Assembly (NCBI GenBank): GCA_030041135.1
Contig: JASHOL010000528.1
Location: 6,720 to 70,719, forward strand
Length of the DNA stretch: 64,000 nt
DNA from: Streptosporangiaceae bacterium
GTDB taxonomy: Bacteria; Actinomycetota; Actinomycetes; Streptosporangiales; Streptosporangiaceae
Reading direction: 5' to 3'
Positions 736 through 21,746 of the stretch are shown here, piece after piece. Each line of letters opens with the position of its first letter. Positions within the stretch are counted from its first letter, which is position 1. The notes beneath the pieces are model-generated. The model was given only the letters and a program-made list of their open reading frames with translations, had not been told where the DNA came from and made no database searches. The translations under genes and the position numbers were made by a program.

Positions 736-2748
736 GGCGACGATCAGATACGCGAGCAGCACGGCCACGAAGACGTACAGCAGGTACAGGTTGACGTCGC
801 CCGACTGGAGCGGGCGGACGAAGTCGGCCAGCCACTCGACCGAAGCGACCACGGGCCGGTACAGATACCGCTCGAACACGGGCGTGGCCTGCGACTCGTA
901 GTGCACGGGCCCGGACCGGCCCGCCGGGTCATCGGAGGCTCGCTCCAGCGAGACCGACGGCCGGTACAGCGCATCGAAGGTGACCCTGGTCGGCGCCGAG
1001 AACGTCATCGCCGAGTACTGCATGCGCGGCCTGAACGCGAGCATCCCGCCGTCCCACACCGGCACCACGGTCGAGCTGGCCCGCGGCCGGCCTGCCAGGT
1101 AGATAAGAGCGGGCACGACGAGGACGGCGAGCAAGAACACCGTGAGATAGGTCGGCGAGAAGCCGGAGAAGTTCGTGTGCGCCGGGATCACGGTCAGCTT
1201 GCCCGGCAGCAGGACGGGCCGCAGCGCGACTCCGGTCGCCGTGCGGATCGCCGTGGCCAGCCCCACGAGCACGACCGGCGCGCCCACGGCCAGGGCCACG
1301 CACGCGACGGCCAGCAACGCCGGCCCGGCGACCGGCTGGTCCGCCTCAGTGGCCGACGCGGCCTGCCGGGTACGCGGCATGCCGAGGTAGGGGATCCCGT
1401 ATCCGCGGACAAAGGCGTAGATCGCCAGCCCCCCGGTCAGCCCCAGCGTGGCGGCGGCGACCACGATCAGGATGGCCACCAGGTCACTGTGCGTGCGAAA
1501 GCCCTGGAAGAGGCCCTGGAAGATCAGCCACTCACTGACGAAGCCGTTCAGCGGCGGGAGCGCGGCGATGCCAAGTGTGCCGACGAACGCGATCACCCCG
1601 GCCCTCGGCATCGTCCGCGCCAGCCCGCCGAGCCGGTCCATGTCCCTGGTCCCGGTCGCGTGCTCGGTCACGCCGGCCTCCAGGAACAGCAGCGTCTTGT
1701 AGCAGCCATGGTTGAGCACGTGGTACAGCCCGGCCAGCAGCAGGAACGCCCACAGTGCGCGCTGGGAGTAAGCGAGGAAGGTCATCGCGGCACCGAACGC
1801 GGTCACGATGATGCCGATGTTCTCGATCGTCGAGAACGCGAGGAATCGCTTGATGTCCCGTTCCGCCATGGCGTACAAGATCCCGATGGCCGCCGTGAAC
1901 GCGCCCAGCCCCATCGTGACAATCCCGCGCCAGGCCGGGCCGTCGGGCAGCAGCCGGAACGCGAACAGCGCGATCCCGTAGACGCCAAGCTTGACGATCA
2001 GGCCGGACAGGAACGCCGAGCCGTCGGCCGGAGCGACCGGGTGCGCGGCAGGCAGCCACACGTGCAGCGGGACCAGGCCGGCCTTGAACCCGAACCCGGC
2101 CAGCGCAAGCAGGTAGGCGGTGTCGCGCCAGTCGGCGGGGACCCGGTGGGCGCGCGCGGCGATCACGTCGAGCGAAAGAGACCCGGTCTTGGCGGCCAGG
2201 ATGACGAAGGCAGCCACGATCAGCACGAATCCGGTCTCCGACAGAGCCAGGAACCAGAACGCCCCGCTGGCGACCTCACGGCTGCGCGGCTTGTGCAGGA
2301 TCAGCAGATAGCACAGCAGCGCCATTGACTCCCACGAGACCAGGAACGTCGTCACGCCGCCGGCCGCAAGCACGGCGATGCTGGCGATCAGCGCAAGATT
2401 GTAGGCGGCAAGGTACAGGTTTGCCTGCGCCGAAGTTTCCTTGCGGGAACGAGGTGTGTACAGCGCAATCGCCACCGCCACGATGCCGAGCAACGTGGCG
2501 AACACGCCGGCCAGGCTCGTGGCCTGCAGCTGCAGCGAGCCGACCACGGTCGATCCACCCGGCGATACGACCCTGGAGTTGCCGGCCAGCAGCGCGGCGA
2601 TCCCGCCAGCAAGAACGGCGATCCCGCCGATGGCCGACAGTCCGCAACTGCATCGCATCGCGGCGCTGACAGTGCCGGACAAGCCAGCCACGATCGCCGC
2701 GGCCGCCCAGGCGGCCGCGGCGGCACCGAACAGGATCAGGGCGGTCAT
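730..2748 (-). CDS. Ehr1 antiporter-like subunit, HyfB/NuoL family (proton-conducting membrane transporter)
   Basis: The internal ATG at 2748 (MTALILFGAAAAAW...) forms an ATGA overlap with the stop of the upstream small-subunit gene. Polytopic protein with NuoL/HyfB-like blocks (WESMALLCYLLI, GFKAGLVPLHVWLPAAH, FSTIENIGII). The ORF track extends to 2862, but the extra residues are Arg/Gly-rich and unlikely to be coding. Confidence 0.85.
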   Translation of the reverse strand: MTALILFGAAAAAWAAAAIVAGLSGTVSAAMRCSCGLSAIGGIAVLAGGIAALLAGNSRVVSPGGSTVVGSLQLQATSLAGVFATLLGIVAVAIALYTPRSRKETSAQANLYLAAYNLALIASIAVLAAGGVTTFLVSWESMALLCYLLILHKPRSREVASGAFWFLALSETGFVLIVAAFVILAAKTGSLSLDVIAARAHRVPADWRDTAYLLALAGFGFKAGLVPLHVWLPAAHPVAPADGSAFLSGLIVKLGVYGIALFAFRLLPDGPAWRGIVTMGLGAFTAAIGILYAMAERDIKRFLAFSTIENIGIIVTAFGAAMTFLAYSQRALWAFLLLAGLYHVLNHGCYKTLLFLEAGVTEHATGTRDMDRLGGLARTMPRAGVIAFVGTLGIAALPPLNGFVSEWLIFQGLFQGFRTHSDLVAILIVVAAATLGLTGGLAIYAFVRGYGIPYLGMPRTRQAASATEADQPVAGPALLAVACVALAVGAPVVLVGLATAIRTATGVALRPVLLPGKLTVIPAHTNFSGFSPTYLTVFLLAVLVVPALIYLAGRPRASSTVVPVWDGGMLAFRPRMQYSAMTFSAPTRVTFDALYRPSVSLERASDDPAGRSGPVHYESQATPVFERYLYRPVVASVEWLADFVRPLQSGDVNLYLLYVFVAVLLAYLIVAL

Positions 2749-3353
2749 GCCGGGCCGCCGGCGGTAAAGCTGAGGCTCGGTACCTTCTCGGCCAGCCGGT
2801 CCACGGCCACCAGCAGCCCGTGCAGCAGCGCCAGCGGGCTGGGCGGGCAGCCCGGAATCCACACGTCGACCGGCAGCACCTCTTCGGCCGACCCGTGACA
2901 GAAGGCGTCCGGCTGGTACACGCCGCCCAGCGCGCAGGCACCGGTCGCCACGACGATCTTGGGCGCCGGCATCGCGTCGTACGCCTTGCGGGCGGCAGCG
3001 GCGAAGGCCCGGAGCATGGGCCCGGTGACCAGCAGGAGGTCGGCATGCCGTGGCGCCGGCGTAAAGAAGAACCCGAGCCGGTGCAGGTCATAGTGCGGCG
3101 CCGCCAGCAGCCGGATCTCCTGCTCGCATGCCGCACACGAGCCGGTGTCCAGCGTCCGGATATGCAGGCTGCGGCGGAACTGGCTAGCGACGCGGCGGCG
3201 CAGCTCCTCGGCGGCAGCATCCGCACCGCGGCCCGGCGGCTCGCTCACCGTGTCTCCCGCTCGCCTCCGGGCCGCCTCAAGGCGGCGCCTTCCCTCGTCG
3301 CTCGTCCCTCGCTCCTCAGTCCAGGCGCCACCGCGGCCCGGCGGCTCGCTCAC
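2745..3353 (-). CDS. Ehr1 small subunit, HycG/NuoB family, with all four [4Fe-4S] Cys ligands retained
   Basis: Motifs GSCAACEQEI, TGACALGG and IPGCPPSP are present. The GTG start at 3353 overlaps the stop of the upstream gene (GTGA). An identical alternative GTG start context lies at 3248. Confidence 0.85.
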   Translation of the reverse strand: MSEPPGRGGAWTEERGTSDEGRRRLEAARRRAGDTVSEPPGRGADAAAEELRRRVASQFRRSLHIRTLDTGSCAACEQEIRLLAAPHYDLHRLGFFFTPAPRHADLLLVTGPMLRAFAAAARKAYDAMPAPKIVVATGACALGGVYQPDAFCHGSAEEVLPVDVWIPGCPPSPLALLHGLLVAVDRLAEKVPSLSFTAGGPA

Positions 3354-3697
3354 GGGCCAGCCTCCGGATCGTCGATGAGCGGTATCCGCTTGAGCAGCGC
3401 CTGCCTTGTCGTCGTGGCCAGCTCGAACTCGCTGCCCGGCGCGACGGCCTCGGGCGAGTGCTCACGGCACCAGCCGGCGACCGTGCACGCGCCAGCGTCG
3501 AAGACCAGCACGTCTTCCGATCGCGTGAGCGCCCGGCTCGGGCAGACTTGCACCAGGGCATCGGCGGCATGGCGGCTCAGCGCACCGGCGCGGAACGCCG
3601 GCGGGCCCGGCAGGTCGCGTGCGGATGGCTCAGGGCGGGCCGGGTACCGGGTAGTGACCACCCCCCGGCGCAGCCCCCGGATGAACCACTGCGGCAT
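3350..3697 (-). CDS. Ehr1 HycF/NuoI-like ferredoxin-fold subunit, Cys-depleted (3 of the canonical 8 Cys)
   Basis: The N-terminus GLRRGVVTTRYP resembles the HycF N-terminus. VCPSRAL keeps only the last Cys of the first motif. CTVAGWCREHSP replaces CxxCxxCxxxCP. A GAGAAGGGAG Shine-Dalgarno sequence precedes the ATG at 3697. Confidence 0.7.
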   Translation of the reverse strand: MPQWFIRGLRRGVVTTRYPARPEPSARDLPGPPAFRAGALSRHAADALVQVCPSRALTRSEDVLVFDAGACTVAGWCREHSPEAVAPGSEFELATTTRQALLKRIPLIDDPEAGP

Positions 3698-3728
3698 TGC
3701 TGGCGGCTCCCTTCTCTCGTACCTTCGC

Positions 3729-5306
3729 CTAGCGCGCCGTCCCGGCGACGGTCAGCCAGAAGCTGGCCTCGATGATCGGGATGTCGGTGAACACGTTCTG
3801 GGACCGGCACGCGTCGTCGAACCCGCGCCAGTTCCTGACGGCGGCCGGCCGCAGCCGGGCCCGGCTGATCCGGCCGGCCGCATCCAGCTCGACCCAGGCC
3901 AGGGACTCGCCACGCGAGGACTCGGCCCAGCCCAGGCCACAGCGGTGCTGGCCGTCGTCCGACCCGGCACAAACGCCCCCCGTGTCCGCGCTCTCTTTCG
4001 ATCGCACGTCCGCCGGCAACCGGTCACGGCCGCCGGATGCCGCGAGCGCGTCGATGAGTCGGACGGACTCGTCGGCCTCGGCCAGCATCACGCGCATGCG
4101 GGCGAGCGCGTCGCCTGCCGCCTGACTTGCGGCAACGGTCGGCAGCCCGATGTAGGCGCCGGAGGGATGGTCGGCGCGGGCATCGGCGCAGACTCCGCTC
4201 GCCCGCGCGACCGGGCCGACCAGGCCCAGGCGACCTGCTTCCTCGAAGGTCACGGTGCCGGTGGCCTCCAGCCGGTCGAGGAACGAGTTCGTGCTCAGCA
4301 GGGCGTCGCATGCCCGGCGCAGCTCGCCATATGCGGTCGGCAGGCCCTCGCGAAGCCGGACCAGGTCAGGAGTGGTGCGCGCGCCGCCAATCTCGACGAC
4401 TCCGAACAGGTACCGGTGGCCTAGAACCGCCGCGTTGAGCCGCAGCAACTGCTCAAGTGCGATCTCCGCGGCGGCGCGGCCGACGGCCAGGCCGCAGGCC
4501 TGGCACATGGCGGCGATGGCCGCCGCGTGGTTGTACAGACGCTCGAGCTCGAGCGCGATCGCCCTGGTCACCAGGGCCTCCGGCGCAGGTTCTGATCCCA
4601 GCGCGGCTTCGGCGGCGGCGGCGAACGCGCAGCTGTTGCCGACCGCGCCGAGTCCTTCGGCGCGCTCGATGTGAAACAGCGCCTGGTGCGGAGTCTTGCC
4701 CTGTGCCCGCCACTCGACGCCGCGGTGCTTGTGCCAGGTGAACAAGTACAGGTCGACGAGTTCCTCACCGCTGGTCACCAGGCCGTAGTACAGCGATTCG
4801 ACGCCGACCTGGCGGACCGGGCCGAACGGGAACTCGAACGCCTGCCCGCCGACGAGGTGCGGAGCGTGCACGTCCTGCGGCGGCTCCACCGGAGCCCGGC
4901 CCAGCCTGGGCAGCTCGATGTCGGATTGCGGCGGCGTCGCGACCCGGTTCAGCGGCTTGCCGCCAGTCGGCCTGATGCCGAACTGCTCGTAGATCTCGCA
5001 CTCCTCGGCGAAGGCAGCGGGCGCGATGTCCGACAGCGCCGGGTACCAGGGTCCGTCGACCTCAGTCTCGGTAATCAGGTACTGCTGGTCGTGGTCCAGC
5101 GCCCACACCATCCGCAGGATCACCGGGTCGGTGCCGGCCGCGAACAGGTCGGCGAGGCGGGCACCGGGGTGCTGCGCCAGTTCCGCGGTCACCACTTCCA
5201 GTTCGGCCGCGGCTACATCGGTGACCGCGACCGGTCCGGTGTCGATGTCCGCCCGGGTCATGACGGCGGCCCGCGGGCCCGCCGTATCCGGCCTGAGCGC
5301 GGTCAT
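3729..5306 (-). CDS. Ehr1 large subunit, HycE/NuoC-NuoD fusion type, lacking the Ni-Fe Cys ligands
   Basis: The N-terminal NuoC-like part contains ...ECEIYEQFGIRP. The NuoD/HycE-like body contains FPFGPVRQVGVES and WHKHRGVE. ERAEGLGAVGNSCAF occupies the place of the ER.CG.C...H motif. The C-terminus IIEASFWLTVAGTAR occupies the place of DPCxxCxxR. ATGA overlap with the upstream gene. Confidence 0.85.
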   Translation of the reverse strand: MTALRPDTAGPRAAVMTRADIDTGPVAVTDVAAAELEVVTAELAQHPGARLADLFAAGTDPVILRMVWALDHDQQYLITETEVDGPWYPALSDIAPAAFAEECEIYEQFGIRPTGGKPLNRVATPPQSDIELPRLGRAPVEPPQDVHAPHLVGGQAFEFPFGPVRQVGVESLYYGLVTSGEELVDLYLFTWHKHRGVEWRAQGKTPHQALFHIERAEGLGAVGNSCAFAAAAEAALGSEPAPEALVTRAIALELERLYNHAAAIAAMCQACGLAVGRAAAEIALEQLLRLNAAVLGHRYLFGVVEIGGARTTPDLVRLREGLPTAYGELRRACDALLSTNSFLDRLEATGTVTFEEAGRLGLVGPVARASGVCADARADHPSGAYIGLPTVAASQAAGDALARMRVMLAEADESVRLIDALAASGGRDRLPADVRSKESADTGGVCAGSDDGQHRCGLGWAESSRGESLAWVELDAAGRISRARLRPAAVRNWRGFDDACRSQNVFTDIPIIEASFWLTVAGTAR

Positions 5307-6796
5307 CCGAGTACCCCGATCGAGTGCGTGATCACGGTGCTCAGGCCGGCTGGTATCCAGAGGCCGAGCACGAGGAGGGCAGCCAGACCGACGGTGACAG
5401 GGGCTACAGCCGTCAGGCTGGCTGCCCGGCCCTGGTACGGACTGGCCCGGCCCGCTCCGGCCAGCCCGGCCACCGGCTCGCCGGTGGCCATGCCAGTGGT
5501 GGTCCTCGCGAACGCGATGAACGCGACCGCCAGCAGGAACAGGAGCAGCAGCGGCAGCACCGGGCTAGCGCCCGCGAACCCTGCCCTGACGATCGTGAGC
5601 TCGGACAGGAACAGGCCGAACGGCGGCGATCCCAGCACGGCGAAAGAGCCGAGCAGCAATGCTCCGCCGGTCAGCGGAACGGCGGCCAGCAGGCCGCGCA
5701 CCCCCGCCGCCTCCCTGGTGCCGGAGCGCAAGGCGATGTCGCCGCTGGACAAGAACAGCACGGCCTTGGCGATCGCGTGGTTCAGCGTGTGCAGCAGCGC
5801 CCCGTACAGGCCGAGCACGCCGCCGAAGCCGAGCGCCACCGCGATGATGCCCATGTGCTCGACCGAGGAGTAAGCGAAAAGCCTCTTGAAGTTGCCCCTC
5901 CGCACCATGAACAGCACGCCGATCACGATTGACAGGAAGCCGAACACCAGCAGCACGAGGCGGGGAAACTCGGGACCGAGGCCGGCCTTCGCGATCGCCA
6001 GGAACCGGATGATCGCGTACATGCCGGTGTTCAGCAGCGCTGCGGACAGCATCGCGCTGGCCGGGCTCGGCGCCTCCGCGTGCGCGTCCGGCAGCCAGGT
6101 ATGCATCGGTGCCAGCCCGACCTTCGTTCCGTACCCAACGACCGCGAGCAGGAACGCCAGCCGCAGGCTCGCGGGCGCCAGCGAGCGGGCATGCGCGAAC
6201 AGGAACGGCCAGGTCAGCCGCAGGTCAGGCGCGAGGTGGAGGGCGCTGGCGGAGTAGAACAAGAACAGCGTGCCGGCCAGCGCGATCGTCACGCCGAGCG
6301 AGCTGATGATCACGTACTTCCACGCTGCTTCCAGCGAGCTGGCCTTGCCCTCCAGGCCGACAAGCGCGGCGCTGGCCAGCGTGCTGGCCTCGATGAGCAC
6401 GAACAGGAGGCCAAGGTTCCCTGTCTCCAGCGAGGCCAGCATCAGGGCCGCGAACAGCCCGAAGAAGATGAAGTACAGCCGGACCTGGAAGCTCGTCAGC
6501 CGGCCGGCCGCCTCCTCGGCCGACAGGTAGCCGACCGACCCGACGGCGGCCAGCAGGGTCACGGCCGAGACCGTGAACAGGAAGAAGCAGCTGAGCGAAT
6601 CCACGTAGAGGTAGCCGCCGAGACCGCGCACCGGCACGCGGTGCAGCTGAGCCACGAGCAGCCAGACCGCGGCCGCCAGGGTCAGGCTCGCGCCCGCGGC
6701 ACCGCTCCAGCCCGCCACCCGGCCGCGAGCACCGGACGCCGCCGCTACCGTGCCTGCCAGCGGGCCGGCGATGATGATGAACGCCAGGACTGTCAT
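5303..6796 (-). CDS. Ehr1 antiporter-like subunit, HyfF/HycQ/NuoN-M family
   Basis: The internal ATG at 6796 (MTVLAFIIIAG...) forms an ATGA overlap with the HyfE-like stop. NuoN/M-like blocks GTKVGLAPMHTWLPDAHAEAP and YSSVEHMGII are present. The upstream part of the 694-aa track ORF is Arg-rich and likely spurious. Confidence 0.85.
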   Translation of the reverse strand: MTVLAFIIIAGPLAGTVAAASGARGRVAGWSGAAGASLTLAAAVWLLVAQLHRVPVRGLGGYLYVDSLSCFFLFTVSAVTLLAAVGSVGYLSAEEAAGRLTSFQVRLYFIFFGLFAALMLASLETGNLGLLFVLIEASTLASAALVGLEGKASSLEAAWKYVIISSLGVTIALAGTLFLFYSASALHLAPDLRLTWPFLFAHARSLAPASLRLAFLLAVVGYGTKVGLAPMHTWLPDAHAEAPSPASAMLSAALLNTGMYAIIRFLAIAKAGLGPEFPRLVLLVFGFLSIVIGVLFMVRRGNFKRLFAYSSVEHMGIIAVALGFGGVLGLYGALLHTLNHAIAKAVLFLSSGDIALRSGTREAAGVRGLLAAVPLTGGALLLGSFAVLGSPPFGLFLSELTIVRAGFAGASPVLPLLLLFLLAVAFIAFARTTTGMATGEPVAGLAGAGRASPYQGRAASLTAVAPVTVGLAALLVLGLWIPAGLSTVITHSIGVLG

Positions 6797-7467
6797 CCCT
6801 GCAGCTCCCTCAGCTCGGACGAGCTCGCGCTGGCGAGCTGGCGGGTCAGGCCCGAGACGAACACGAGCATGATCAGGACGCCGGCCACGACGTCGAGGAA
6901 GATCCCGGCCTCGACGATGAAGGGGAACGTGGCGACCAGGGTGATCGCGCCGAGGAACACCCCGTTCTCCACGATGAGCCAGCCGATCAGCTGCGCGACC
7001 GTGTGCCGGCGGACCACCATGGCGAGGGCGCCGAGGAGTATCACCGCGGTCGACAGTGGCACGATCGCCGCGGCGACCAGGCCGTGAGGCAGGAGCTGCG
7101 GCCTGGTCACCAGATAGGCGAACGCGGTCAGGCCTCCGCCGGCGATCAGCGAGGTGGACAGGCCGGTGGAGAGCGCGGCATCGCGCTTGAGATCGAGTCG
7201 GCGGATCAGGAGCCTGCGCGCGGCGACCGGAATCGCGATGCCCTTGATCGCGAGCGTCGCCACGGCGAGTATCCAAAGCTCCGCGCGGCCGAACGCGTAA
7301 GCGGCGACGCCGGCGGCGAAGGCCAGCACGACGGACTGAGCGCCGTAGTAGGCGACGTACCGGTTGAACAGCTTGGAGCCCAGGCACGCAAACGCCAGCA
7401 GGAGGATGACCACGCCTGACAGGTCGAGCAGGACGCCGACCGTGCTGGTTGCGGACAGGCTCTGCAC
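6793..7467 (-). CDS. Ehr1 HyfE/HycP-like (NuoK-type) membrane subunit
   Basis: 224-aa polytopic protein in the position and of the size of hydrogenase-4 component E. GTG start lies 3 nt after the HycD-like stop. Confidence 0.8.
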   Translation of the reverse strand: MQSLSATSTVGVLLDLSGVVILLLAFACLGSKLFNRYVAYYGAQSVVLAFAAGVAAYAFGRAELWILAVATLAIKGIAIPVAARRLLIRRLDLKRDAALSTGLSTSLIAGGGLTAFAYLVTRPQLLPHGLVAAAIVPLSTAVILLGALAMVVRRHTVAQLIGWLIVENGVFLGAITLVATFPFIVEAGIFLDVVAGVLIMLVFVSGLTRQLASASSSELRELQG

Positions 7468-7470
7468 GGC

Positions 7471-8424
7471 TCAGGCGCCAATCACGTAGGACGTCGCCAC
7501 GCCGACCAGAGCGAGCAGGAAGGCGGCACCGAGAAACTCAGCGATCCGGAAGAAACGAAGCTTGGCGAACGACGTGTCGATCACGACGATCGCCAGTCCG
7601 CAGAGGGCCAGCTTCCCGGCGAGTGCCGGGATCGCGAGGACGGCACTGGCGAGGTCGGCGCCGTTGCCGAGTCCCCAGGGCAGGACGAACACGTTCATGA
7701 AGATCGAGGACAGCAGGAAGAACTTCATCCAGCTGCCCCACTTCATCAGCGCGTAGGCGCGGCCCGAGTACTCGAGCACGCGGCTCTCCTCGATCATGGA
7801 GATCTCGGTAGTCCCGCCATGGCTGTCGATCGGGATCCGTCCGTTCTCGACCAGCACGATCATGAAGAACGCCAGCAGGCCGAGCACGTGGGTCGGGAGC
7901 ACCAGCGCGTACGGCGAGGCGGATATCGCGTGGTTCATCAGGTACGGGTTGTCCGACGCCGATACCGCGCCCACGGTGAAGAACACGAGGATCAGGGCGG
8001 GCTCGGCCATGCTGCCGATCCAGCTGGCCCGGCTGGCGCCAAGGCCGCCGTAAGGGCTGGCGGTGTCCAGGCCGGCCAGCGAGGTCATAAAGCTGGCGAG
8101 CGCCAGCACGAACGCCCCGCCGATCAGGTCGGCGAGGAACGCCAGCGGCAGCGGGGTGTTGGTGATCACCGGGACGATGACCGAGACCGTCAGGTAGCAG
8201 GCGAACGTGACGAACGGCGTGATCGCAAAGACCCACGACGCCTGGTCGCTGGTGGCGCTGCCCTTGCGCAGGAGCTTGGCCAGGTCGCGGTAGGGTTGCA
8301 GCACGCTCGGGCCGCGCTTGGACTCGACGATCGCCTGCGCCCTGGCCAGCCCGCCGGCATACAGCGGCGCAGCCAGCAACACCACCAGGCTCTGCAGGAC
8401 CTGGGCGACGACAGCAGACAGCAA
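7471..8424 (-). CDS. Ehr1 HycD/HyfC/NuoH-like membrane subunit
   Basis: Contains RGPSVLQPYRDLAKLLRKG and ...IPIDSHGGTTEISMIEES..EYSG, typical of formate hydrogenlyase subunit 4 and NuoH. TTG start at 8424 is preceded by GGAGG with a 5-nt spacer. Confidence 0.85.
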   Translation of the reverse strand: MLSAVVAQVLQSLVVLLAAPLYAGGLARAQAIVESKRGPSVLQPYRDLAKLLRKGSATSDQASWVFAITPFVTFACYLTVSVIVPVITNTPLPLAFLADLIGGAFVLALASFMTSLAGLDTASPYGGLGASRASWIGSMAEPALILVFFTVGAVSASDNPYLMNHAISASPYALVLPTHVLGLLAFFMIVLVENGRIPIDSHGGTTEISMIEESRVLEYSGRAYALMKWGSWMKFFLLSSIFMNVFVLPWGLGNGADLASAVLAIPALAGKLALCGLAIVVIDTSFAKLRFFRIAEFLGAAFLLALVGVATSYVIGA

Positions 8425-8458
8425 AAGACCTCCACCTGGGCGGATCGTCCGTGCAGGT

Positions 8459-8505
8459 AGAGGCCATCAGCCGGGACTCCCCCGGCGTTACGCGAGCCTC
8501 ATCGC
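8459..8505 (-). promoter_or_regulatory. Conserved element copy a: AGAGGCCATCAGC-N20-GCGAGCCTCATCGC (plus-strand reading), 34 nt upstream of the Ehr1 operon start
   Basis: The two boxes are identical in all three copies (8459-8505, 9098-9143, 21615-21662). A TATGCT -10-like hexamer on the minus strand (8518-8523) lies 12 nt upstream of the element. Confidence 0.7.
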
Positions 8506-8568
8506 GTGATCTTCTTCAGCATACACAGCGCTAGGTCAGCGCGGAAGCCGCTATGCCTGGCAGGCCGG

Positions 8569-9045
8569 TTACTGACTGCTTAGCAACAGCACCGGCACCG
8601 GACAACTCTGGACAGCGCAATCGGCCACCTGACCGAGCCGGGACTTGCGGCGCCGTCCGTCGCCGTGCCGGCCCAGCACCAGCACGTCGAAGCCGTGCTC
8701 GGCTGCATACCGGGTCACGACCTGAGCGGGGGTATCGCGATCGGCGTAGACGACCTGGGCGCTCATCCTGACCGCGTTGCCCGTCGGCAGGTCGCGGCGC
8801 AATTCGCCGAACACGATCTCCGCGAGCTCCGCGAGGTGCCTGCCCTCGCCATCCTCGTCGGTGTCGCCGTCAGCTCGCGGCGCGCGCCGGATGACCGAAA
8901 GCGCCACCACGTGCCCCCCGTCGCTGGCTACGATCGCCGCCGCCGCCCTGATCGCGTCGGCCCCGTCCGGCGACCCGTCGAAGCCCGCGAGGACACGCCG
9001 GAACGGCCCGACCGACTTCACCCGAGCCACCCGCCGGTAACGCAT
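8569..9045 (-). CDS. Universal stress protein (UspA family)
   Basis: Contains RRVLAGFDGSPDGADAIRAAA... and the C-terminal VLVLGRHG....SRLGQVADCAVQSCPVPVLLL USP signature. The start is uncertain: ATG at 9045 is chosen, the ORF is open to a TTG at 9087, and GTGs at 9030 and 9021 are also possible. Confidence 0.8.
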   Translation of the reverse strand: MRYRRVARVKSVGPFRRVLAGFDGSPDGADAIRAAAAIVASDGGHVVALSVIRRAPRADGDTDEDGEGRHLAELAEIVFGELRRDLPTGNAVRMSAQVVYADRDTPAQVVTRYAAEHGFDVLVLGRHGDGRRRKSRLGQVADCAVQSCPVPVLLLSSQ

Positions 9046-9097
9046 GTCGCCCGACTCAACGACAGCCTCCAGACTCCCGGCAACCAAAGGACTGCGC

Positions 9098-9143
9098 AGA
9101 GGCCATCAGCGACATTCTTCGCGGTTACGGCGAGCCTCATCGC
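9098..9143 (-). promoter_or_regulatory. Conserved element copy b: AGAGGCCATCAGC-N19-GCGAGCCTCATCGC, upstream of the USP gene
   Basis: Boxes identical to copies a and c. A GACAAT -10-like hexamer on the minus strand (9152-9157) lies 8 nt upstream of the element. Confidence 0.7.
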
Positions 9144-9637
9144 CTGTGGTCATTGTCACGACCTGATCGCCGCCTCACAAGGGTCTCCCGCTATTACCCG
9201 TCTGACGAGCGGACCAGGGTCGGCCTTGACCCGCCCCGCTCCCCATTGCCACACTGCTCGGTGGCGATGGGGCTCGCCTGCAAGCGCGGCGTCCGCCGCT
9301 GACAGTCCCTGTACCAGCCAACTGGTGGTCAGGGTGAGGCATGTCCAGGGTGAGCGAAGACGAGGTCCTACTCCTGTGGCGAGCGCTACGCGGGTTTCGG
9401 TCAGGCCGGCGGCCGGCCTGCTCTGCCCGTGGCAGTCCGCCGACCAGCCCGTGCCCGCTGCATGACCGCTGCCCGCGATGGCAGGGTGAGCCCGACGACT
9501 GGCTGGCCAGCCTGGAGGAGACGTCTGGTCAGACCGAGCGCAGGCGCTCAGCGTGGCCGTGCAGCAGGCTGCTGGAACTGCTGTCACCCGACCTGACGAG
9601 GATCGGCCCGTGACGGCGTGCGGGCGGGGCGGCTAGC

Positions 9638-10867
9638 ATGCCGGCTGCCACCCCGCTCCCCCACGGGCCAACGGTCCTGACCCTGTACGGCGCCGAGGAC
9701 CTGCTGACCGCTCCCGGCTGTCCCGTGTGCCGGTATGCCGGGGAGGCCAGCGACCGTTACTTCGGCTGGTTCGCGCTCGAAGGGCACGCCCAGCCCGGAA
9801 TGATCGCGACACTGGCTGGATCGCTGGGCATGTGCGCCGCGCACAGCCGCAGGCTCATCGGTCAGCCGGGCGCAGCGGTGCGCCTTACCGCCGTCTACCG
9901 GTACGTCGTGACCGCAGCACGGGACCGGCTGGCGGGCAGCACCGCTCCGGTCGCGCCCTGCCCGGCCTGCGAGCACGACGACGCGGCCGCCGGGCGCGCG
10001 CTCGAGACACTGGTGGACGGGCTCGACGACGGGTCGGTCGCAGATCGCTGCCGCGATCTCGGTGGCCTGTGCCTCCCGCATCTGTCGGTTGCCTCCGGCG
10101 GCGCCCGGCGACGGGTAGTTGCCTGGCTGGGTGAGACCGTGCGGGCAACCCTCGCCGCCGGCCAGGACCGGATCGGTTGGCTGGCCGGAGTCGACCATGA
10201 CGCCGGGGCCAGGGCCGCGCTGCGGGCTTCGATCCCCGCCGCCGACACGCCCGCGCCCTGCGCGTGCCCGGCCTGCCTGGCGGCGCTGCGGGCGGAGCGC
10301 GACAGCCTCGCTGTGCTTCCAGCCGGCCCAGGCAGGACGCTAGATTACCCGAATACCGCGCCGGCGCTGTGTCCCGGCCACCTCGCAGATGCGGCCGCCG
10401 CGGCGGCGACGGCGGGCGGATTGCGTGCGCTGCTGGCGTCGCAGGCTGCGGTCCGCGTCGACGGAAACCGGCCGGACGCCGGCCGGTCCCGCTGGCGCCC
10501 AGCCGCTCTCCACCGGGACCGTTCTCCCCGCTGTCCCGTCTGCCGGGCACGCGGCGAGGCCGAACAGCGAGCCCTCACGGGCATTATCAGTGCACTCCGG
10601 AGTTCGCCGCCAGAAGCAGGCCAGAGGGTGCCACTGTGCGCCCGGCACCACCTGGGCGTACGCGCCGCCGCTGGGCGGGCCAGTGAGCCGCTGGCCCGCC
10701 AGGCTGCCGCGACTGCGGACCAGCTCGCCCGCGATCTGGCGGCGGAATTCGACGGCACCACCTGGGCTCGGCGCCAGGGTGCCCCCGCGCCTGAACCCGT
10801 CGCCTGGCGCCGGGCGGCAGAGTTCCTCGACGGAACTGTTTTCGGTGCCAGTCGCCCATCCAGGTAG
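9638..10867 (+). CDS. Cys-rich protein with four CPxC...CxxH modules (putative 4x zinc-ribbon-like; function unknown)
   Basis: The four modules are GCPVCRY...GMCAAH, PCPACEH...GLCLPH, CPACLAAL...ALCPGH and RCPVCRARG...PLCARH. Transcribed divergently from the USP gene. Confidence 0.7.
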   Translation: MPAATPLPHGPTVLTLYGAEDLLTAPGCPVCRYAGEASDRYFGWFALEGHAQPGMIATLAGSLGMCAAHSRRLIGQPGAAVRLTAVYRYVVTAARDRLAGSTAPVAPCPACEHDDAAAGRALETLVDGLDDGSVADRCRDLGGLCLPHLSVASGGARRRVVAWLGETVRATLAAGQDRIGWLAGVDHDAGARAALRASIPAADTPAPCACPACLAALRAERDSLAVLPAGPGRTLDYPNTAPALCPGHLADAAAAAATAGGLRALLASQAAVRVDGNRPDAGRSRWRPAALHRDRSPRCPVCRARGEAEQRALTGIISALRSSPPEAGQRVPLCARHHLGVRAAAGRASEPLARQAAATADQLARDLAAEFDGTTWARRQGAPAPEPVAWRRAAEFLDGTVFGASRPSR

Positions 10868-12679: not shown

Positions 12680-12968
12680 CGCCGAGTGGGCTCACCACTG
12701 CTGCCAGCATAAGCCCGCGCGAGTCAGCAGTCACACGCGGCGAGCCGGGGCTGGCGGTAGCGGGGCGGACGAGGACATGACCGCGGTCGTACGTCAGGCC
12801 GAGCGCATCATCTACGAGGTCCCGCGCCGTCAGCCGATATCACAATCGCCGGTGGCGCTCTGGGCACGGGCCGTCGTTCCACGTAACCTTGAGACGTCGG
12901 CGGAGGGGCCCGCCGTCAAACGCGGACGCGCCGCCAACGGTCCCTGCTGAAGGCAGGAGGCCGTTGTT

Positions 12969-13856
12969 GTGCGTCCGGATGATGTATGTGCCTGTCCGAC
13001 CGCCCCGACCGAGGTTCCAGAAGGCCAGTCAGCAACGGGCCTGCCCGATGCCGACTTGCGGCAACTGATCACGCATCTGTACGTGTGCAGGGGCCAGTCG
13101 ACGTACAGGATCGGCGAGCTCACGGGCATCGGAAGGCAGCGTGTCGGCCGGATGCTCTCCCGCGCCGGAGTCCCGGTCAAGCCGCGAGGCGAGGGCAGGC
13201 CTCGATCGCGTGACGACCAGAGGGTGACGCTCGACCAGCTCATGACCAGGCTTTACGTCGAGGCTCGCCTGTCCTCGGTGCAGATTTCAGCGCTGACCGG
13301 TGTGCCGCACCGCACTGTACGCGCCAGGCTCCGGGCCGCTGGCGTGCGGATGCGCACCAGGGGCGGGCTCAACCGCGAAGATCGCACCGCGGTCCCCGTT
13401 GACGCGCTGATGCGGCTGTACGTCGGGGCGGGCCTGTCGGCAGCCGATGCGGGACGGTTGCTGGGAGTTTCCAGGCAGGTCGTGCTGCGTACGGCGCACG
13501 ACGAGGGTGTCCCGGTGCGGATAGGAGGGCCGCAGCCCAGTCACGGCCCTACCGAGATCGAGCTTGTCAAGGCACTGTACGACGATCCGCTGGTGCGTTC
13601 CGCGCTAGCACGCCACGGTGTTGCCTCCCGGCCTGCGGGAGGCCCGATTTGGCGGCGATTCCCGGTGCCCCTGCCGGTCAGCTCAGAACTGGCGGCGGAG
13701 CTTTACGTTGAGTGCGGACTGGCGGTGCGCCACATCGAGTTGGTCACCGGGCAGGCGGCCCAAACGGTACTGAGGAAGTTGCACGCCAACGGGATCACGC
13801 CCAGGCCACCAGGTGGACGGTCACCCTTTATGCGCAGGTGGCGCACTCCGATGTGA
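12969..13856 (+). CDS. Tandem-HTH repeat protein (four LY..HTH..G(V/I).(V/P).R modules plus one degenerate module)
   Basis: The repeats are LITHLYVCRGQSTYRIGELTGIGRQRVGRMLSRAGVPVKPRG, LMTRLYVEARLSSVQISALTGVPHRTVRARLRAAGVRMRTRG, LMRLYVGAGLSAADAGRLLGVSRQVVLRTAHDEGVPVRIGG and AAELYVECGLAVRHIELVTGQAAQTVLRKLHANGITPRPPG. An AGGAGG Shine-Dalgarno sequence precedes the GTG at 12969. Confidence 0.75.
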   Translation: MRPDDVCACPTAPTEVPEGQSATGLPDADLRQLITHLYVCRGQSTYRIGELTGIGRQRVGRMLSRAGVPVKPRGEGRPRSRDDQRVTLDQLMTRLYVEARLSSVQISALTGVPHRTVRARLRAAGVRMRTRGGLNREDRTAVPVDALMRLYVGAGLSAADAGRLLGVSRQVVLRTAHDEGVPVRIGGPQPSHGPTEIELVKALYDDPLVRSALARHGVASRPAGGPIWRRFPVPLPVSSELAAELYVECGLAVRHIELVTGQAAQTVLRKLHANGITPRPPGGRSPFMRRWRTPM

Positions 13857-13859
13857 GTC

Positions 13860-15938
13860 TTAGTGCAGGCCAGTGACCAGCGCCAGGACGGCAATGAGCG
13901 CGATCAGCATGTAGGCCAGGTACGCGTCGAGGCGGCCCGACTGCAACCGCTGCGCTTGCCGCACCGCGAGCGCGAACGGCCGCCGGAAGGGCCGGTAGAA
14001 GTACTCCTCCGTGACCTCGATGACGTCGGAGCTGTACTCGACATGGGCTGCGGCCGCGCCGGCGTCCGGGTCCCTGGCATCATCACTGACCTCGAGCCTG
14101 GTGACCTCGGCTCGGGTGTGCAGGATGGCGGCGAGCACCCGCCGCGCGGGATTCGCGAAGGCGAAGGCGGTGTAGCTCGCACGTCCGGAGACGCCCGCGG
14201 TGGCTGAGCGCCAGGCCGGGACGCGGCGGACTCGCAGCAGGCGCCCCCCCGATGCGAGCCAGGCCAGCACGGCGACCACCGCGAACAGCGTCGGCATGAC
14301 GATCCAGAGCCACGAAGGCGACAGGATCGAGAAGCCGGCGTACACCGGTTGCAGCACCCAGGGCGACTTCAGCGCCGCTGTCACCGCGGCGGACGGCAGC
14401 ACCGGGACGAGCCCGGCACCGATCATCCTGATCTCGAGCGGTGCCAGCGCGGCCAGCGCCAGGCACGCAGCGGCGAGCGCGACGATGCCTGCCCGGCCGG
14501 CGAGACCGGGATCACCGTCGCCGCTGGCCGCCGCGCTTCGAGGCGAGCCGAGCACGACCAGGCCGACCAGCCGCACGAAGGTCACGCCCGCGAAGCCCGC
14601 GGTCAGCGCCACCGCCGCGCCGGTCACGGCCAGCACCAGCCGGTCAGCCAGCCCCGGCACCCGGAACTGCTGCATGAGCGCCTCGAGCAGGAACCACTCG
14701 GAGACGAAGCCTGCCGTCGGCGGCAGCCCGGCCAGCGTCAGGCTGCCGATCGCGAGTCCGGTGCCGCTCCAGGGCGTCCGCCGCACCGACCCGCGCAGGT
14801 CGTCCAGGTCATCCCGTCCCGCTGCGGCTTCGATTCCTGGGCTGGAGACAAACAGCAGCGATTTCGCCGCGGTGTGGGCGATGACCTGGAGAGTTGCGGC
14901 CAGCAGCCCCGCCGCCGTGAGGGCACGGCTGCCGGTAGCGGCGCCGACCAGGGCCACGCCGAATCCGGCCAGGATGAGGCCGGTGTTCTCCACGCTGGAA
15001 TACGCGATGACGCGCTGCAGGCTGCCCTGCACCGCGGCGTGGGCGATGCCGAGGACGGCGGTCATGCTGGCGAGCAGCAGCAGGACGTCGCTCACCGCAG
15101 CAGGGGGTGGGCCGAGCACGGCCAGCGTGCGCCACAGGCCGTAGAAGCCCACATTGACCGCAACTCCGGCCATGATCGCGCGCGCAGGTCCGGTCGCGGC
15201 GGCGTAACCGCGCGGCAGCCAGACCTGGAACGGGACCAGCCCGACCTTGACCGCGAAGCCCGCCAGCAAGAGCACGCAGGCGGTGGATCGCAGTGGTCCG
15301 TGGGCCACGTGGGCCAGGCCGGCCAGCGTCAGCGATTCTGACCTGGTGACCAGCAGGAGCAGGCCAGCGAGCAGAAACGCGCCACTTATGCGGCCGAATG
15401 CGAGCGTGACTAGCGCGGCCGCCGGACGGCCATGCGTGACCCGGCGGTAACCCGACAGCACCCAGAAGGCCAGCGTCAGCGACTCCCACGCAAACAGCAG
15501 CGTGAACGCGTCCCTCGCGGTGAGCACGACCGCGACCGAGCCGAGGGCGAGTGCGTACCCGGCGCCCAGGCCGCGGCGTCCTGGCCCGCTGGGGCCGATA
15601 GACCACGAGGCGAACGCGAGCGACACAGCCGCCGCCGCGGTGAAGGCGATCACGAGGAACAGGCCGGAGAGCCGGTCTGCGGCGAGTCCCGGAATCACGG
15701 AGAAGCCCGGCCGCGCGCCGATCGCCACGACTCCGAGCAACCCGCCGGACCTGAGCGCCACCGCCCGGCCCGCCAGGGCGGCGGCGCCGGCGACGGCCAG
15801 GCTCACCGAGCCGACGGTGCCTACCAGGTACGGTGCGGCCCGCCACGCCCGCCCCCGCGGCCCGGCTCCCAGGTCAGCCGCGGCCGCAAGGGCGAGCAGG
15901 ATCAAGCCGACGGCCAGCGCGACTCCGAACCCCGTCAT
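13860..15938 (-). CDS. Ehr2 antiporter-like subunit, HyfB/NuoL family
   Basis: ATGA overlap with the upstream gene. Contains WESLTLAFWVL, GFAVKVGLVPFQVWLPRGY and YSSVENTGLI blocks. Syntenic with 730-2748. Confidence 0.85.
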   Translation of the reverse strand: MTGFGVALAVGLILLALAAAADLGAGPRGRAWRAAPYLVGTVGSVSLAVAGAAALAGRAVALRSGGLLGVVAIGARPGFSVIPGLAADRLSGLFLVIAFTAAAAVSLAFASWSIGPSGPGRRGLGAGYALALGSVAVVLTARDAFTLLFAWESLTLAFWVLSGYRRVTHGRPAAALVTLAFGRISGAFLLAGLLLLVTRSESLTLAGLAHVAHGPLRSTACVLLLAGFAVKVGLVPFQVWLPRGYAAATGPARAIMAGVAVNVGFYGLWRTLAVLGPPPAAVSDVLLLLASMTAVLGIAHAAVQGSLQRVIAYSSVENTGLILAGFGVALVGAATGSRALTAAGLLAATLQVIAHTAAKSLLFVSSPGIEAAAGRDDLDDLRGSVRRTPWSGTGLAIGSLTLAGLPPTAGFVSEWFLLEALMQQFRVPGLADRLVLAVTGAAVALTAGFAGVTFVRLVGLVVLGSPRSAAASGDGDPGLAGRAGIVALAAACLALAALAPLEIRMIGAGLVPVLPSAAVTAALKSPWVLQPVYAGFSILSPSWLWIVMPTLFAVVAVLAWLASGGRLLRVRRVPAWRSATAGVSGRASYTAFAFANPARRVLAAILHTRAEVTRLEVSDDARDPDAGAAAAHVEYSSDVIEVTEEYFYRPFRRPFALAVRQAQRLQSGRLDAYLAYMLIALIAVLALVTGLH

Positions 15939-16750
15939 CGCGCGTCACCAGCCGCCGCTGACGTCAGCGGTCCGGCGCTTGCAGGAATCCGGCCCACCGC
16001 CGTCAGGAGCGCCGACAGAATCGCGAACGGGCTAGGCGGCGAGCCTGGCAGCCACACATCGACCGGCACGATGTCACCTACGCCGCCGCTAACGGCGTAG
16101 GACGGGCTGACGATGCCGCCGCCCACCGCGTCCGTCCCGACCGCGATGACCACCTTCGGATCGGGCATCGCGTCGTAAGTCTCGCGTAGCGGCCCGGCCA
16201 TGCCGCGCGCGCCCGCCCCGGTGACCAGCAGGATGTCGGCGTGCCGCGGGCTGGCCGTGAAGAACAGGCCAAGCCGGTGAATGTCGTACACCGGGTTGAG
16301 GAGCGCCATGATCTCCCACTCCTCGCTGCCGTCGGATCCAGCGTCGACGTGACGCAGGTGCACCGAACGGCGCAGGGCCCTCGTGCGGACGCGGAGCCGG
16401 TCGCTCACCTCACGGAGCGCGTCCGGGCTCTCGGCAGCCGGTACCACCAACTCCGGCCGGGTGAGCGTCGCGCGATGCGGGTCGGCCGACCAGGCGAAGA
16501 CGTCCGGCCGGGCGGCGACGCAGCGGCCGCAGAGGATGCACTTGCCCTGGTCGACGCGGATGCCACCATCCTGATCCGCGCTGATCGCATCGACCGGGCA
16601 CAGTCGCGCCGCCTCAGCCGCCGGGAGCGCGGCAGCGGCCGGGCCCGGCTTGACTGTTGCCGGTCCGCGCGTCGCGTTCGCGTAAACGTCCGGTCGTCCC
16701 GGCCATCCGGTCGTCAGGACGCCGTTGCGCAGTCCGCGCAAGACCCACAT
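15935..16750 (-). CDS. Ehr2 fused HycF-like ferredoxin domain plus HycG/NuoB-like small subunit; all NuoB-type Cys ligands are substituted
   Basis: The N-terminal part has GLRNGVLTTGWP, LCPVDAI and CILCGRCVAARP. The C-terminal part aligns to the Ehr1 small subunit but reads GSDGSEEWEI, VGTDAVGG and LPGSPPSP in place of GSCAACEQEI, TGACALGG and IPGCPPSP. Confidence 0.85.
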   Translation of the reverse strand: MWVLRGLRNGVLTTGWPGRPDVYANATRGPATVKPGPAAAALPAAEAARLCPVDAISADQDGGIRVDQGKCILCGRCVAARPDVFAWSADPHRATLTRPELVVPAAESPDALREVSDRLRVRTRALRRSVHLRHVDAGSDGSEEWEIMALLNPVYDIHRLGLFFTASPRHADILLVTGAGARGMAGPLRETYDAMPDPKVVIAVGTDAVGGGIVSPSYAVSGGVGDIVPVDVWLPGSPPSPFAILSALLTAVGRIPASAGPLTSAAAGDAR

Positions 16751-16765
16751 CTAATGCCTCGCCAT

Positions 16766-18253
16766 CTACCGGGCCGCCCCGGCCACGGGCAGCCCGAAGC
16801 TCGCCTCGATGAACGGGAAGTCGGTCAGGATGTCACCGGCGAATACCTCGTGCATCAGCACCAGGTTGTGGAACGCCGCCGGCCGCACCCGGCAGCGAGT
16901 GATCACGCCGCCCTCGATGCGCACGTCATACAGGAGCTCCCCCTGCGGTGCTTCAGCCCACCCGGTTGCACGTCCGTCCGCCTGGCCCAGGTCGGCGCGC
17001 AGCGGACCCGACCCGGCGTCGGCCAGCTCGTCGGCGGCCTGGCGGAGCAGGTGGACTGAACCGCCGATCTCGTCGACTCTGACTTCCAGCCGGGCCAGCG
17101 CATCGCCGTCCGAGCGCGAGCTAGTCGTCATGCCCAGCAATCCGTACGCCGCATAAGGCCTGGACTGCCGAATGTCCTCGCCAGCGCCCGACGCGCGCCC
17201 GATCGGACCGAGCGCGCGGTGCTCGGCTGCCCTGGCCGGGGCCAAGGGTCCGGTGCGGCGCAGGCGATCAAGGAATGACGCGGTGCCCATCAGCAGGTCG
17301 AGATCGGGTGTGATGCGCCGGTCCAGGTCGCCAATCGCGCCCAGCAGGTCAGGCGGCCCAAGCAGCGGCGGACCGCTGACGCCGCCCGGTACGACCAGGC
17401 CGCGGCCGAACCTGCTGCCCGACAGCTCGCCCGCTAGCCGCAGGACCCGCTCCTTGTGCCAGCCGAACCTGGCGGTCGCCACGGCCAGCCCGGCCCCGTC
17501 GGCCAGCCGGACGATGATGTCCAGATGACATGCCAGCCGCTCCAGCTCGGCCTGCGCGACCCGGATCAGCGACGCTCGCCAGGGCACATCCAGGCCCGCG
17601 ATCCGCTCGACCGCCTCGCAGAACGCGATCGCATTGGCGACCGACGCGACGCCCTCGGTCCGCTCGGCCAGCAGTACCCCGTCGGCCGGGCTCAGGCCCT
17701 CGAAGCGCTTCTCGATCCCGCGATGCTTGTAGAAGATCCGCATGTTCAGGTGCGGGATGTCCTCGCCCGGCGTCTCGACCAGGTACTCGATCGACTCGGT
17801 CACTCCCGACCGCACCGGCCCGTGCGGGATCGTGAACAGCCCCGGCCCGGCGGCATGGCGCGGCAGCACACCGGGATCGGGATCGATCGCAGCCGGGGCC
17901 GCGCCGCCTCCCGGCATCGGCAGATCCGTGCTACTGGTCGGCAGGACCAGCGGCTCTAGCCGCGGATGACCCTCAGGCACGACGCCGAACAGGTCGTGAA
18001 TCTCGCGCTCGTACCAGAACGCCGGCGCTACCTGAGGGGTAAGTGCCGGGTAGCGCACTTGATCGGACGGCAGCAACGCCTCGAGGCTGGTGATGGTTGC
18101 CCGGTCGGCCAGTTGAGCGGTGAGCACCAGCCCGTCGGGATGAGCGGTGGCGAACAGGTCAGCCAGCCGGCTGCCGGCCTCGATCTGGCGGACGACCAGG
18201 TGCCACAGCGCAGGGACGCTCGCGGCCAGCCCGGGCTCAGTGGCGGCAGTCAT
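16766..18253 (-). CDS. Ehr2 large subunit, HycE/NuoCD type, lacking the Ni-Fe Cys ligands
   Basis: The internal ATG at 18253 (MTAATEPGL...) forms an ATGA overlap with the HyfF-like stop. ERTEGVASVANAIAF and the C-terminal FIEASFGLPVAGAAR replace the two CxxC motifs. Contains FYKHRGIEKRFEG. Confidence 0.85.
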   Translation of the reverse strand: MTAATEPGLAASVPALWHLVVRQIEAGSRLADLFATAHPDGLVLTAQLADRATITSLEALLPSDQVRYPALTPQVAPAFWYEREIHDLFGVVPEGHPRLEPLVLPTSSTDLPMPGGGAAPAAIDPDPGVLPRHAAGPGLFTIPHGPVRSGVTESIEYLVETPGEDIPHLNMRIFYKHRGIEKRFEGLSPADGVLLAERTEGVASVANAIAFCEAVERIAGLDVPWRASLIRVAQAELERLACHLDIIVRLADGAGLAVATARFGWHKERVLRLAGELSGSRFGRGLVVPGGVSGPPLLGPPDLLGAIGDLDRRITPDLDLLMGTASFLDRLRRTGPLAPARAAEHRALGPIGRASGAGEDIRQSRPYAAYGLLGMTTSSRSDGDALARLEVRVDEIGGSVHLLRQAADELADAGSGPLRADLGQADGRATGWAEAPQGELLYDVRIEGGVITRCRVRPAAFHNLVLMHEVFAGDILTDFPFIEASFGLPVAGAAR

Positions 18254-19809: not shown

Positions 19810-19812
19810 CGG

Positions 19813-21574: not shown

Positions 21575-21614
21575 TGATGTCTCCTCCCACGCCGGGTTGG
21601 CGGCAGTGCGTGGT

Positions 21615-21662: not shown

Positions 21663-21746
21663 CAGTCGCTCCTTTGTATCGTACGCTCCGCGGCGACTGC
21701 AATTCACATAGGTCACTTCCGTCACACAGCTTGGACGCCGGTCTGG

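Follow-up and report, generated by a model that had tools for sequence, protein, structure and literature searches.

The window analysed here, a stretch of 64,000 nucleotides from a Streptosporangiaceae bacterium (GenBank assembly GCA_030041135.1, contig JASHOL010000528.1, positions 6,720 to 70,719 of the forward strand), carries on its minus strand two hydrogenase-like operons, Ehr1 and Ehr2, and a gene for a universal stress protein (USP). A short element composed of two boxes lies in front of each of the three. We consider it very likely that all three correspond to aptamer domains of the fluoride riboswitch class (crcB RNA motif, RF01734), read from the minus strand and forming the first 60 nt or so of the Ehr1, USP and Ehr2 mRNAs.

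According to Pfam and NCBIfam, the Ehr1 operon (730-8424) encodes a HycD/NuoH-like and a 4L-like protein, a HyfF-like antiporter, a fused NuoC-NuoD-like protein, the product of a small open reading frame (ORF), a NuoB-like protein and a second antiporter-like protein. The Ehr2 operon (13860-21485) comprises HycD-like, HyfF-like, NuoC-NuoD-like, ferredoxin-NuoB-like and antiporter-like genes. The USP gene (8569-9021, minus strand; Pfam Usp, 5.1e-19) would encode 150 amino acids from its probable start GTG 9021, the longest ORF reaching to 9087. The minus-strand ORFs downstream of the three sites are 7471-8424 and 20523-21485, both NADHdh/HycD-like (HycD1 and HycD2), and 8569-9087 (Usp).

Each box occurs exactly three times in the window, read on the plus strand: AGAGGCCATCAGC at 8459, 9098 and 21615, and GCGAGCCTCATCGC at 8492, 9130 and 21649. 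The two-box pattern with a gap of 15-25 nt matches exactly and only at 8459-8505, 9098-9143 and 21615-21662, with spacers of 20, 19 and 21 nt, and none of 100 dinucleotide-preserving shuffles contained a match. The copies and spacers described in the initial annotation are thereby reproduced to the nucleotide. The distances it gave to the starts of HycD1, USP and HycD2 also agree with the ORF table: 34 nt (TTG 8424), 11 or 53 nt (TTG 9087 or ATG 9045) and 130 nt (GTG 21485). HycD1 and HycD2 share 48% identity, close to the 45% or so estimated before.

Family membership and structure of the leader RNAs

When the entire window was scanned against Rfam 15, RF01734 (Fluoride, crcB motif; gathering score 34 bits) was the only family to reach its gathering threshold. 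Full-length matches to this model cover all three sites on the minus strand. The USP leader (copy b, 9090-9153) scores 46.9 bits, with an E-value of 7.6e-10 in the whole window, and the Ehr2 leader (copy c, 21607-21672) 41.6 bits. In the case of the Ehr1 leader (copy a, 8451-8515) the score is 32.8 bits, with a local E-value of 5e-7; our own covariance model R1, described below, gives 32.1 bits. At Ehr1-type loci, its short-linker form recurs in the leaders examined (16 listed).

The two boxes correspond to the conserved parts of the aptamer. In the RNA sense, box 2 (GCGAUGAGGCUCGC) is helix P1 with its loop, G-GCG-AUGAGGCU-CGC-C, and box 1 (GCUGAUGGCCUCU) comprises P3's 3′ strand and, after it, the single-stranded conserved tail CUGAUGGCCUCU. 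The variable spacer represents an A-rich linker and hairpin P3. In all three copies a pseudoknot joins GAGGC of the P1 loop to GCCUC of the tail; in copy a, this pseudoknot (GAGGC:GCCUC) is accompanied by P1 CGCG/CGCG and P3 GCCGGG/CCCGGC. One of the two readings offered by the initial annotation, that of a leader RNA, had therefore already assigned the minus-strand RNA, the GAGGC:GCCUC pairing, the complementary spacer arms (P3) and the position at the mRNA 5′ end correctly; the identity as a fluoride riboswitch had escaped it.

The pocket and linchpin nucleotides A6, U7, G8, U38, G39, A40, U41, G42 and U48 (Thermotoga petrophila numbering) are all present in copies a, b and c, within the cores GCGAUGAGGCUCGC and GCUGAUGGCCUCUAC. 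The crystallised T. petrophila aptamer has the same core strings as the window copies, and its numbering agrees with the positions in the preprint cited next. The roles and numbering of A6, U7, G8, U38, A40, U41, G42 and U48 in that aptamer follow bioRxiv 10.1101/2022.05.19.492696.

For the comparison with relatives, 80 loci (L001-L080) were retrieved from GTDB species genomes with an alignment of HycD1 and HycD2. All but one, labelled Deltaproteobacteria, carry the label Actinomycetota. Metagenome-assembled genomes of Streptosporangiaceae, Trebonia or unclassified Actinomycetota make up the majority, and others bear the labels Acidimicrobiales, Pseudonocardiaceae or Nocardiopsaceae; the closest locus is 97% identical. 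Model R1 was built only from copies b and c and a further window copy d (see below), because a MAFFT alignment of all four copies mis-aligned P3 of copy a. It encodes neither the pseudoknot nor the tertiary pair 6-38. Searching 1.42 Mb with R1 gave 281 matches with E ≤ 1, and pairs were counted on the best 150 of these (window and 80 loci), which contain 148 distinct homologues.

Over all pairs of P1, P3, pseudoknot and 6-38, 99.0% of the alignment cells can pair, with 98-99.7% for each single element. The initial annotation had proposed to look for compensatory changes in orthologous leaders with a covariance model, and such changes on both sides are present in 10 of the 14 pairs. Among the distinct homologues, P1 is paired to 99.7% and P3 to 98.0%, each with double changes at three of its four pairs. 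The pseudoknot, paired to 99.2%, occurs in variants such as AAGC:GCUU, GGAGC:GCUCC and GGGGC:GUCCC. The observed values were not attained in any of 500 shuffles, and sliding the 3′ partner by one to three columns left only 22-55% of the cells paired. An architecture scan independent of R1, which requires P1, the pseudoknot and a loose core pattern, delivered 232 matches compared to five in reversed sequences. A candidate ORF (at least 50 aa, G+C-rich third positions) starts on the same strand within 300 nt downstream of 210 of these 232 copies.

Promoters, expression platforms and controlled genes

Since a scan with the sigma-70 consensus found no promoter, promoters were deduced from conservation in orthologous leaders. 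In the leaders examined, conserved promoters lie 6-11 nt upstream of P1, which places the aptamer at the very beginning of each mRNA. The Ehr1 promoter has its -10 hexamer TATGCT at 8518-8523, 11 nt upstream of P1; orthologous leaders show TATcCT, TATGCT or TATTCT after TGTG. For USP (9152-9180), a -35 element TTGTGA (9180-9175) is followed after a 17-nt spacer by the -10 element GACAAT (9157-9152), 7 nt before P1, and the arrangement cTTGtg ... caCAAT is kept in 14 orthologous USP-type leaders. These two -10 hexamers had been recognized before. The third one proposed for Ehr2, TACGAT (21678-21683), is less likely, as it would leave a spacer of only 13 nt and the position conserved among orthologues is that of TACAAA (21673-21678). 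The probable Ehr2 promoter (21673-21702) thus combines TTGCAG (21702-21697), an 18-nt spacer and TACAAA (21678-21673), and aligns with TTGCAg-18-CACAAT in orthologous Ehr2-type leaders.

Downstream of the aptamers, the expression platforms follow on the same minus strand. In the Ehr1 leader (platform 8422-8465), a hairpin GGCCUCUACCUG...CAGGUGGAGGUC (8465-8427) is followed by UUUU and the start codon TTG 8424. Its 5′ arm is the 3′ strand of the pseudoknot and its 3′ arm holds the Shine-Dalgarno (SD) sequence GGAGG (8433-8429) of TTG 8424. A scan for terminator-like structures finds the inner part (8444-8431) with the U-rich tail, the full hairpin appears in the minimum free energy (MFE) fold, and it is conserved with compensatory changes in the loci L001-L016.

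The USP and Ehr2 leaders are organized differently, each containing a short leader ORF. In the USP leader (platform 9018-9104), as read from the sequence, a pairing is possible between the tail GGCCUCU (9104-9098) and GGAGGCU, the segment with the SD sequence at 9070-9066. The leader ORF comprises 13 codons, from TTG 9059 to the stop TGA 9020-9018, which overlaps GTG 9021. This GTG is the probable start of USP, judged by the register of the conserved orthologue N-terminus V(R/K)xxGPFRRVL. This anti-SD/SD pairing recurs in orthologues. An equivalent leader ORF of 14 codons precedes USP in L001. In the Ehr2 leader (platform 21482-21619), the tail CCUCUACCACGC pairs in the MFE fold with GCGUGGGAGG, holding an SD sequence at 21587-21583. 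Here, a leader ORF of 30 codons starts at GTG 21574, and its stop TGA (21484-21482) overlaps the HycD2 start GTG 21485. It is conserved in 10 of 13 Ehr2-type leaders, with a PEPPGxxxGG motif and a GTGA or ATGA overlap, and could represent a small subunit or a coupling device. In relatives (L012, L014, L060, L062, L070, L074, L075 and L077), the Ehr2 leader ORF has 25-42 codons and the motif (V/A)PE(P/Q)PGxxxGG.

In family membership, covarying structure, position and expression-platform architecture, the three leaders are fluoride riboswitches; ligand binding and the direction of regulation would follow from homology with characterized members of the class. By analogy with the T. petrophila aptamer, three Mg2+ ions held by the backbone phosphates of A6, U7, G8, U41 and G42 would cage one fluoride ion. 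Binding of fluoride and Mg2+ would lock the pseudoknot and the linchpin pairs A40-U48 and A6-U38, and the tail would be withheld from the competing hairpin. Without fluoride, the tail (CCUCU...) would pair with a downstream G-rich segment containing the SD sequence. At Ehr1, the alternative hairpin with its U-tract would both end transcription and hide the SD sequence. At USP and Ehr2, it would hide the SD sequence of the short leader ORF, whose stop overlaps the main-gene start, which points to translational control. Since the alternative hairpins are expected to compete for the tail when fluoride is missing, all three leaders are predicted to be fluoride-ON switches.

The controlled complexes show a peculiarity. 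A C-terminal Ni-Fe cysteine motif was sought in both large subunits (3729-5306 and 16766-18373, minus strand) and not found there: HycE1 has one internal CxxC and lacks a C-terminal DPCxxC, and HycE2 has three cysteines without any CxxC, so that neither qualifies as a group-4 [NiFe] hydrogenase. In the Ehr2 operon, the cluster cysteines are missing from the NuoB-like subunit (15935-16750, minus strand), which does have a 4Fe-4S ferredoxin domain at its N-terminus. The antiporter-like subunits match best to hydrogenase-4 subunit F, under the curated cut-off. As the Ni-Fe cysteine ligands are missing from the large subunits, both complexes look like Ehr-type complexes (hydrogenase-related, non-hydrogenase) and not like true formate hydrogenlyases. 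For a link between Ehr complexes and fluoride, nothing was found in the searchable literature. Fluoride induction could offer a practical handle on Ehr function, such as a part in managing protons or sodium under HF-driven acidification.

Several points weigh against the assignment of the three sites as fluoride riboswitches. Copy a stays 1.2 bits under the Rfam gathering score and its linker between P1 and P3 is shorter. No fluoride exporter (crcB or CLC-F) was found among the ORFs of the window that were scanned. The USP start codon, and hence the coupling model for its leader ORF, is only inferred, and the evidence for this organism is sequence-based.

Some of these points would also suit aptamers of the fluoride fold that bind a different ligand or have decayed and lost their function: none of the three controlled genes is a fluoride exporter or an enzyme named as fluoride-inhibited in the cited literature, and copy a lies just under the threshold. 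However, pocket and linchpin nucleotides are canonical throughout in a, b and c, and identical cores are kept across many genomes under purifying selection. In addition, enolase and MutS-domain-V genes of relatives stand behind aptamers of this type, and the gene classes are published fluoride partners. We regard this alternative as very improbable.

Still less probable is the second reading of the initial annotation, a DNA operator in which the boxes are direct-repeat half-sites (GATG(A)GGC(C)TC) for a transcription factor. Both boxes do carry the GATG-GGC-TC core and overlap the transcription start region, and a gene for a tandem helix-turn-helix (HTH) protein, suggested as a binding factor, lies nearby (12969-13856). 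A protein footprint, such as that on a DosR box, would demand fixed spacing and conservation at the DNA level; the boxes are 19-21 nt apart here but 13-74 nt in homologues. Moreover, the changes are compensatory for RNA helices and the pseudoknot, the sequence matches a solved RNA aptamer family, and aptamer and candidate downstream gene share the same strand in every case examined. The HTH gene itself lies behind a variant aptamer (12890-12953). Finally, a dispersed repeat of the REP (repetitive extragenic palindromic) or MITE (miniature inverted-repeat transposable element) type without regulatory role, which had been named before as the finding that would speak against regulation if the copies lacked a bias toward promoters, is hardly credible: despite the copy number (six in the window, up to ten per 15 kb in related loci), 210 of 232 copies stand before a same-strand candidate ORF with conserved promoters upstream in the leaders examined, flanking target duplications and terminal repeats are missing, the sequence between the helices drifts while pairing stays, and beyond the six copies no R1 match in the window exceeds 15.2 bits.

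Variant aptamers, aptamer islands and further genes of the window

Beside the three fluoride riboswitches, the window holds three more divergent copies that the initial annotation had overlooked. Aptamer d (9254-9318, plus strand; 24.2 bits with RF01734) diverges from copy b and has the pattern GAUGGGGCU ... CUGACAGUCCCU with a CUGACAG core. It precedes a conserved 90-aa ORF (9341-9613; MSRVSEDEVLLLWRALRGF...), followed by a 409-aa ORF (9638-10867). The 409-aa protein is rich in cysteine with repeated CPxC...H motifs and has a weak DUF6062 match, found in an orthologue only. Aptamer e (12890-12953, plus strand; GGCGGAGGGGCC ... CCGCCAACGGUCCCU) is located upstream of the tandem-HTH gene 12969-13856 and scores 29.9 bits with R1 and 14.3 bits with RF01734, aligned end to end. 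Aptamer f (23491-23555, minus strand; GGCGGAGGGGCCCGCC...CCGCCAACGGUCCCU, as in e) reaches 18.4 bits with R1 and passes the architecture scan. It lies upstream of a gene for a dynamin-family GTPase (21747-23483), which in turn lies directly upstream of copy c.

Every other R1 match in the window stays at or below 15.2 bits, and those at 13926, 35338, 2587 and other sites were taken as chance. One of them (35338-35401, plus strand, 14.3 bits) runs opposite to the 5′ portion of a CoA_binding_2 gene on the minus strand (35263-35685); it has no proper P3 or tail and is probably fortuitous.

The 232 matches of the architecture scan fall mostly into four core types: the canonical T1 (CUGAUG, n = 132), T2 (CUGACR, n = 28; aptamer d), T3 (GGAG...CCAACG, n = 51; aptamers e and f) and T4 with other G6/C38 forms, e.g. 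GGUG...CCGAUG (n = 17). Positions 6 (A/G) and 38 (U/C) covary in 228 of the 232; in the covariance-model alignment the pair is AU in 120 and GC in 26 cases. The same exchange of A-U against G-C as in the reverse Watson-Crick pair A6-U38 is known from the Levitt pair 15-48 of tRNA. In T3, five of the conserved pocket and linchpin positions differ jointly from the canonical type: G6-C38 stands in place of A6-U38, A in place of U7, A in place of G39 and C in place of U41. Copy e, with G6, A7, G8 and C38, A39, A40, C41, G42, falls short of both the RF01734 score and the canonical pocket. Fold, pseudoknot, U48, platform logic and the association with crcB are retained in T3, which would therefore behave as a fluoride riboswitch while standing outside the family as Rfam delimits it. 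Each of its substitutions is also found singly in otherwise canonical aptamers.

The types differ in the genes that follow. T1 accounts for 70 of 74 aptamers before HycD-like genes, 18 of 19 before genes with a MutS domain V and 15 of 17 before USP genes. T3 was found at 15 of 17 genome loci with dynamin-family GTPases and at 14 of 15 with the tandem-HTH protein, and also before ABC-F genes, and T2 at 10 of 12 with the conserved 90-aa ORF. A search for the exact T3 pattern in metagenome contigs matched at least 120 contigs (L081-L200). Among those listed, T3 precedes crcB in at least eight (Pfam CRCB, 79-92 bits), enolase in one, and ABC-F genes, and T1 and T4 also stand before enolase. Taken together, the fluoride-mitigation gene classes found behind aptamers are formate-hydrogenlyase-like and USP genes in the window, MutS-V in related loci, and enolase and crcB in the metagenome contigs.

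Most likely, T3 and T4 represent sequence subclasses that respond to fluoride and escape the Rfam model, T3 probably being an uncatalogued one. With the fold and the ON-platform preserved in T3 and its place before crcB, fluoride remains its most likely ligand. The distinct regulon had suggested that T3 senses a different ligand; we gave this idea less weight, as T3 precedes crcB and enolase and its substitutions occur singly in canonical aptamers. It is conceivable, though we think it rather unlikely, that the rebuilt pocket gives T3, as a distinct subclass of the fluoride-riboswitch fold, a response different from the canonical type. In that event, the fluoride threshold might be shifted, so that the genes of one island respond in tiers; sensing of another ligand is less likely. 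A described variant or second class of fluoride riboswitches was not found in the searchable literature, which is weak evidence of absence. The replacement of A6-U38 by G6-C38 together with other pocket positions in T3 and T4 could serve as a natural experiment on how RNA cages an anion.

The density of these aptamers is high. Six lie within 15.1 kb of the window, up to ten within 15 kb of L051, and L001, L004, L030, L018 and L008 are likewise aptamer islands. For this Streptosporangiales lineage, whose relatives include Trebonia and metagenome-assembled genomes labelled "palsa" and "bog", this amounts to 6-10 fluoride-type aptamers per 15-20 kb. In six related loci, the Rfam gathering threshold recovers 11 of 45 architecture-scan aptamers, none of type T3 or T4, and also misses many canonical copies of the Ehr1 type with the short linker. 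As only about a quarter is found, automated annotation badly underestimates the fluoride regulon here.

Further genes of the window deserve mention. The region 29600-35100 has a low G+C content (57-60%, compared to 69% for the window) and encodes a cyclopropane-fatty-acid-synthase-like methyltransferase, a 390-aa protein without assigned function, an alpha/beta hydrolase, a fatty-acid desaturase and a DUF998 protein; these genes may have arrived by horizontal transfer as a lipid-modification cluster. At 23695-26040 (plus strand) lies a gene for an amino-acid permease that ends in a fused OB-fold (tRNA_anti-codon) domain at the C-terminus; it is adjoined by a two-component pair (26059-28805, minus strand) of a KdpD-like (DUF4118-HisKA-HATPase) protein and an OmpR-type partner. 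A small protein with an OLD-like TOPRIM domain (53271-53945, minus strand) is a possible defence-related nuclease fragment.

Comparison with known systems

The element is already known in kind: the riboswitch class was described in 2010-2012, with gene classes of this sort listed as its partners. As reference members we take the solved example from Thermotoga petrophila (PDB 4ENC) and, as a transcriptional example, crcB of Bacillus cereus. The leaders of the window share with RF01734 the two helices and the pseudoknot, GAUGAGGC in the P1 loop, CUGAUGGCCUCUAC in the tail, the linchpins A6-U38 and A40-U48, the location in the 5′-UTR, and a predicted ON logic in which a terminator or sequestrator competes for the 3′ strand of the pseudoknot. 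Copies b and c show no essential difference, whereas copy a is about 3 nt shorter in the P1-P3 linker and its P3 has 6 bp. Unlike the examples of the family with a simple terminator, two of the three window leaders appear to act via a coupled short leader ORF.

Concerning the controlled genes, Weinberg et al. (2010; PMC2864571) described crcB motifs in front of genes for formate hydrogen lyase, mutS and K+/Cl- transporters, and a review of 2024 counts formate hydrogen lyase among the commonest enzymes associated with fluoride riboswitches (PMC11139923). The HycD/HyfF/HycE-like operons of the window correspond to this, being placed directly behind the aptamer; they differ by the absence of the C-terminal Ni-Fe cysteine motif from the large subunits and of the cluster cysteines from one NuoB-like subunit. 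[quoted passage not shown] Control of a USP gene by a fluoride riboswitch, experimental in that strain, is thus the common feature, but uspA lies there inside an operon with enolase, pyrophosphatase and crcB, whereas the USP gene of the window has its own riboswitch and promoter.

Since formate-hydrogenlyase-like and USP genes are both published fluoride partners, their co-regulation fits a known pattern of the fluoride regulon. The initial annotation had been reminded of hypoxia and dormancy, an idea we do not follow, as the co-regulating signal is most likely fluoride. The model behind it, the DosR regulon of Mycobacterium tuberculosis, responds to hypoxia and dormancy and co-regulates hyc-like genes (Rv0082-Rv0087) with several USPs. 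The likeness lies in the joint control of a hydrogenase-like complex and a USP. The means are different: in M. tuberculosis a protein regulator acts on a DNA palindrome, whereas here, where no palindrome of the DosR type takes part, control would be exerted by an RNA aptamer with, most likely, fluoride as the signal.

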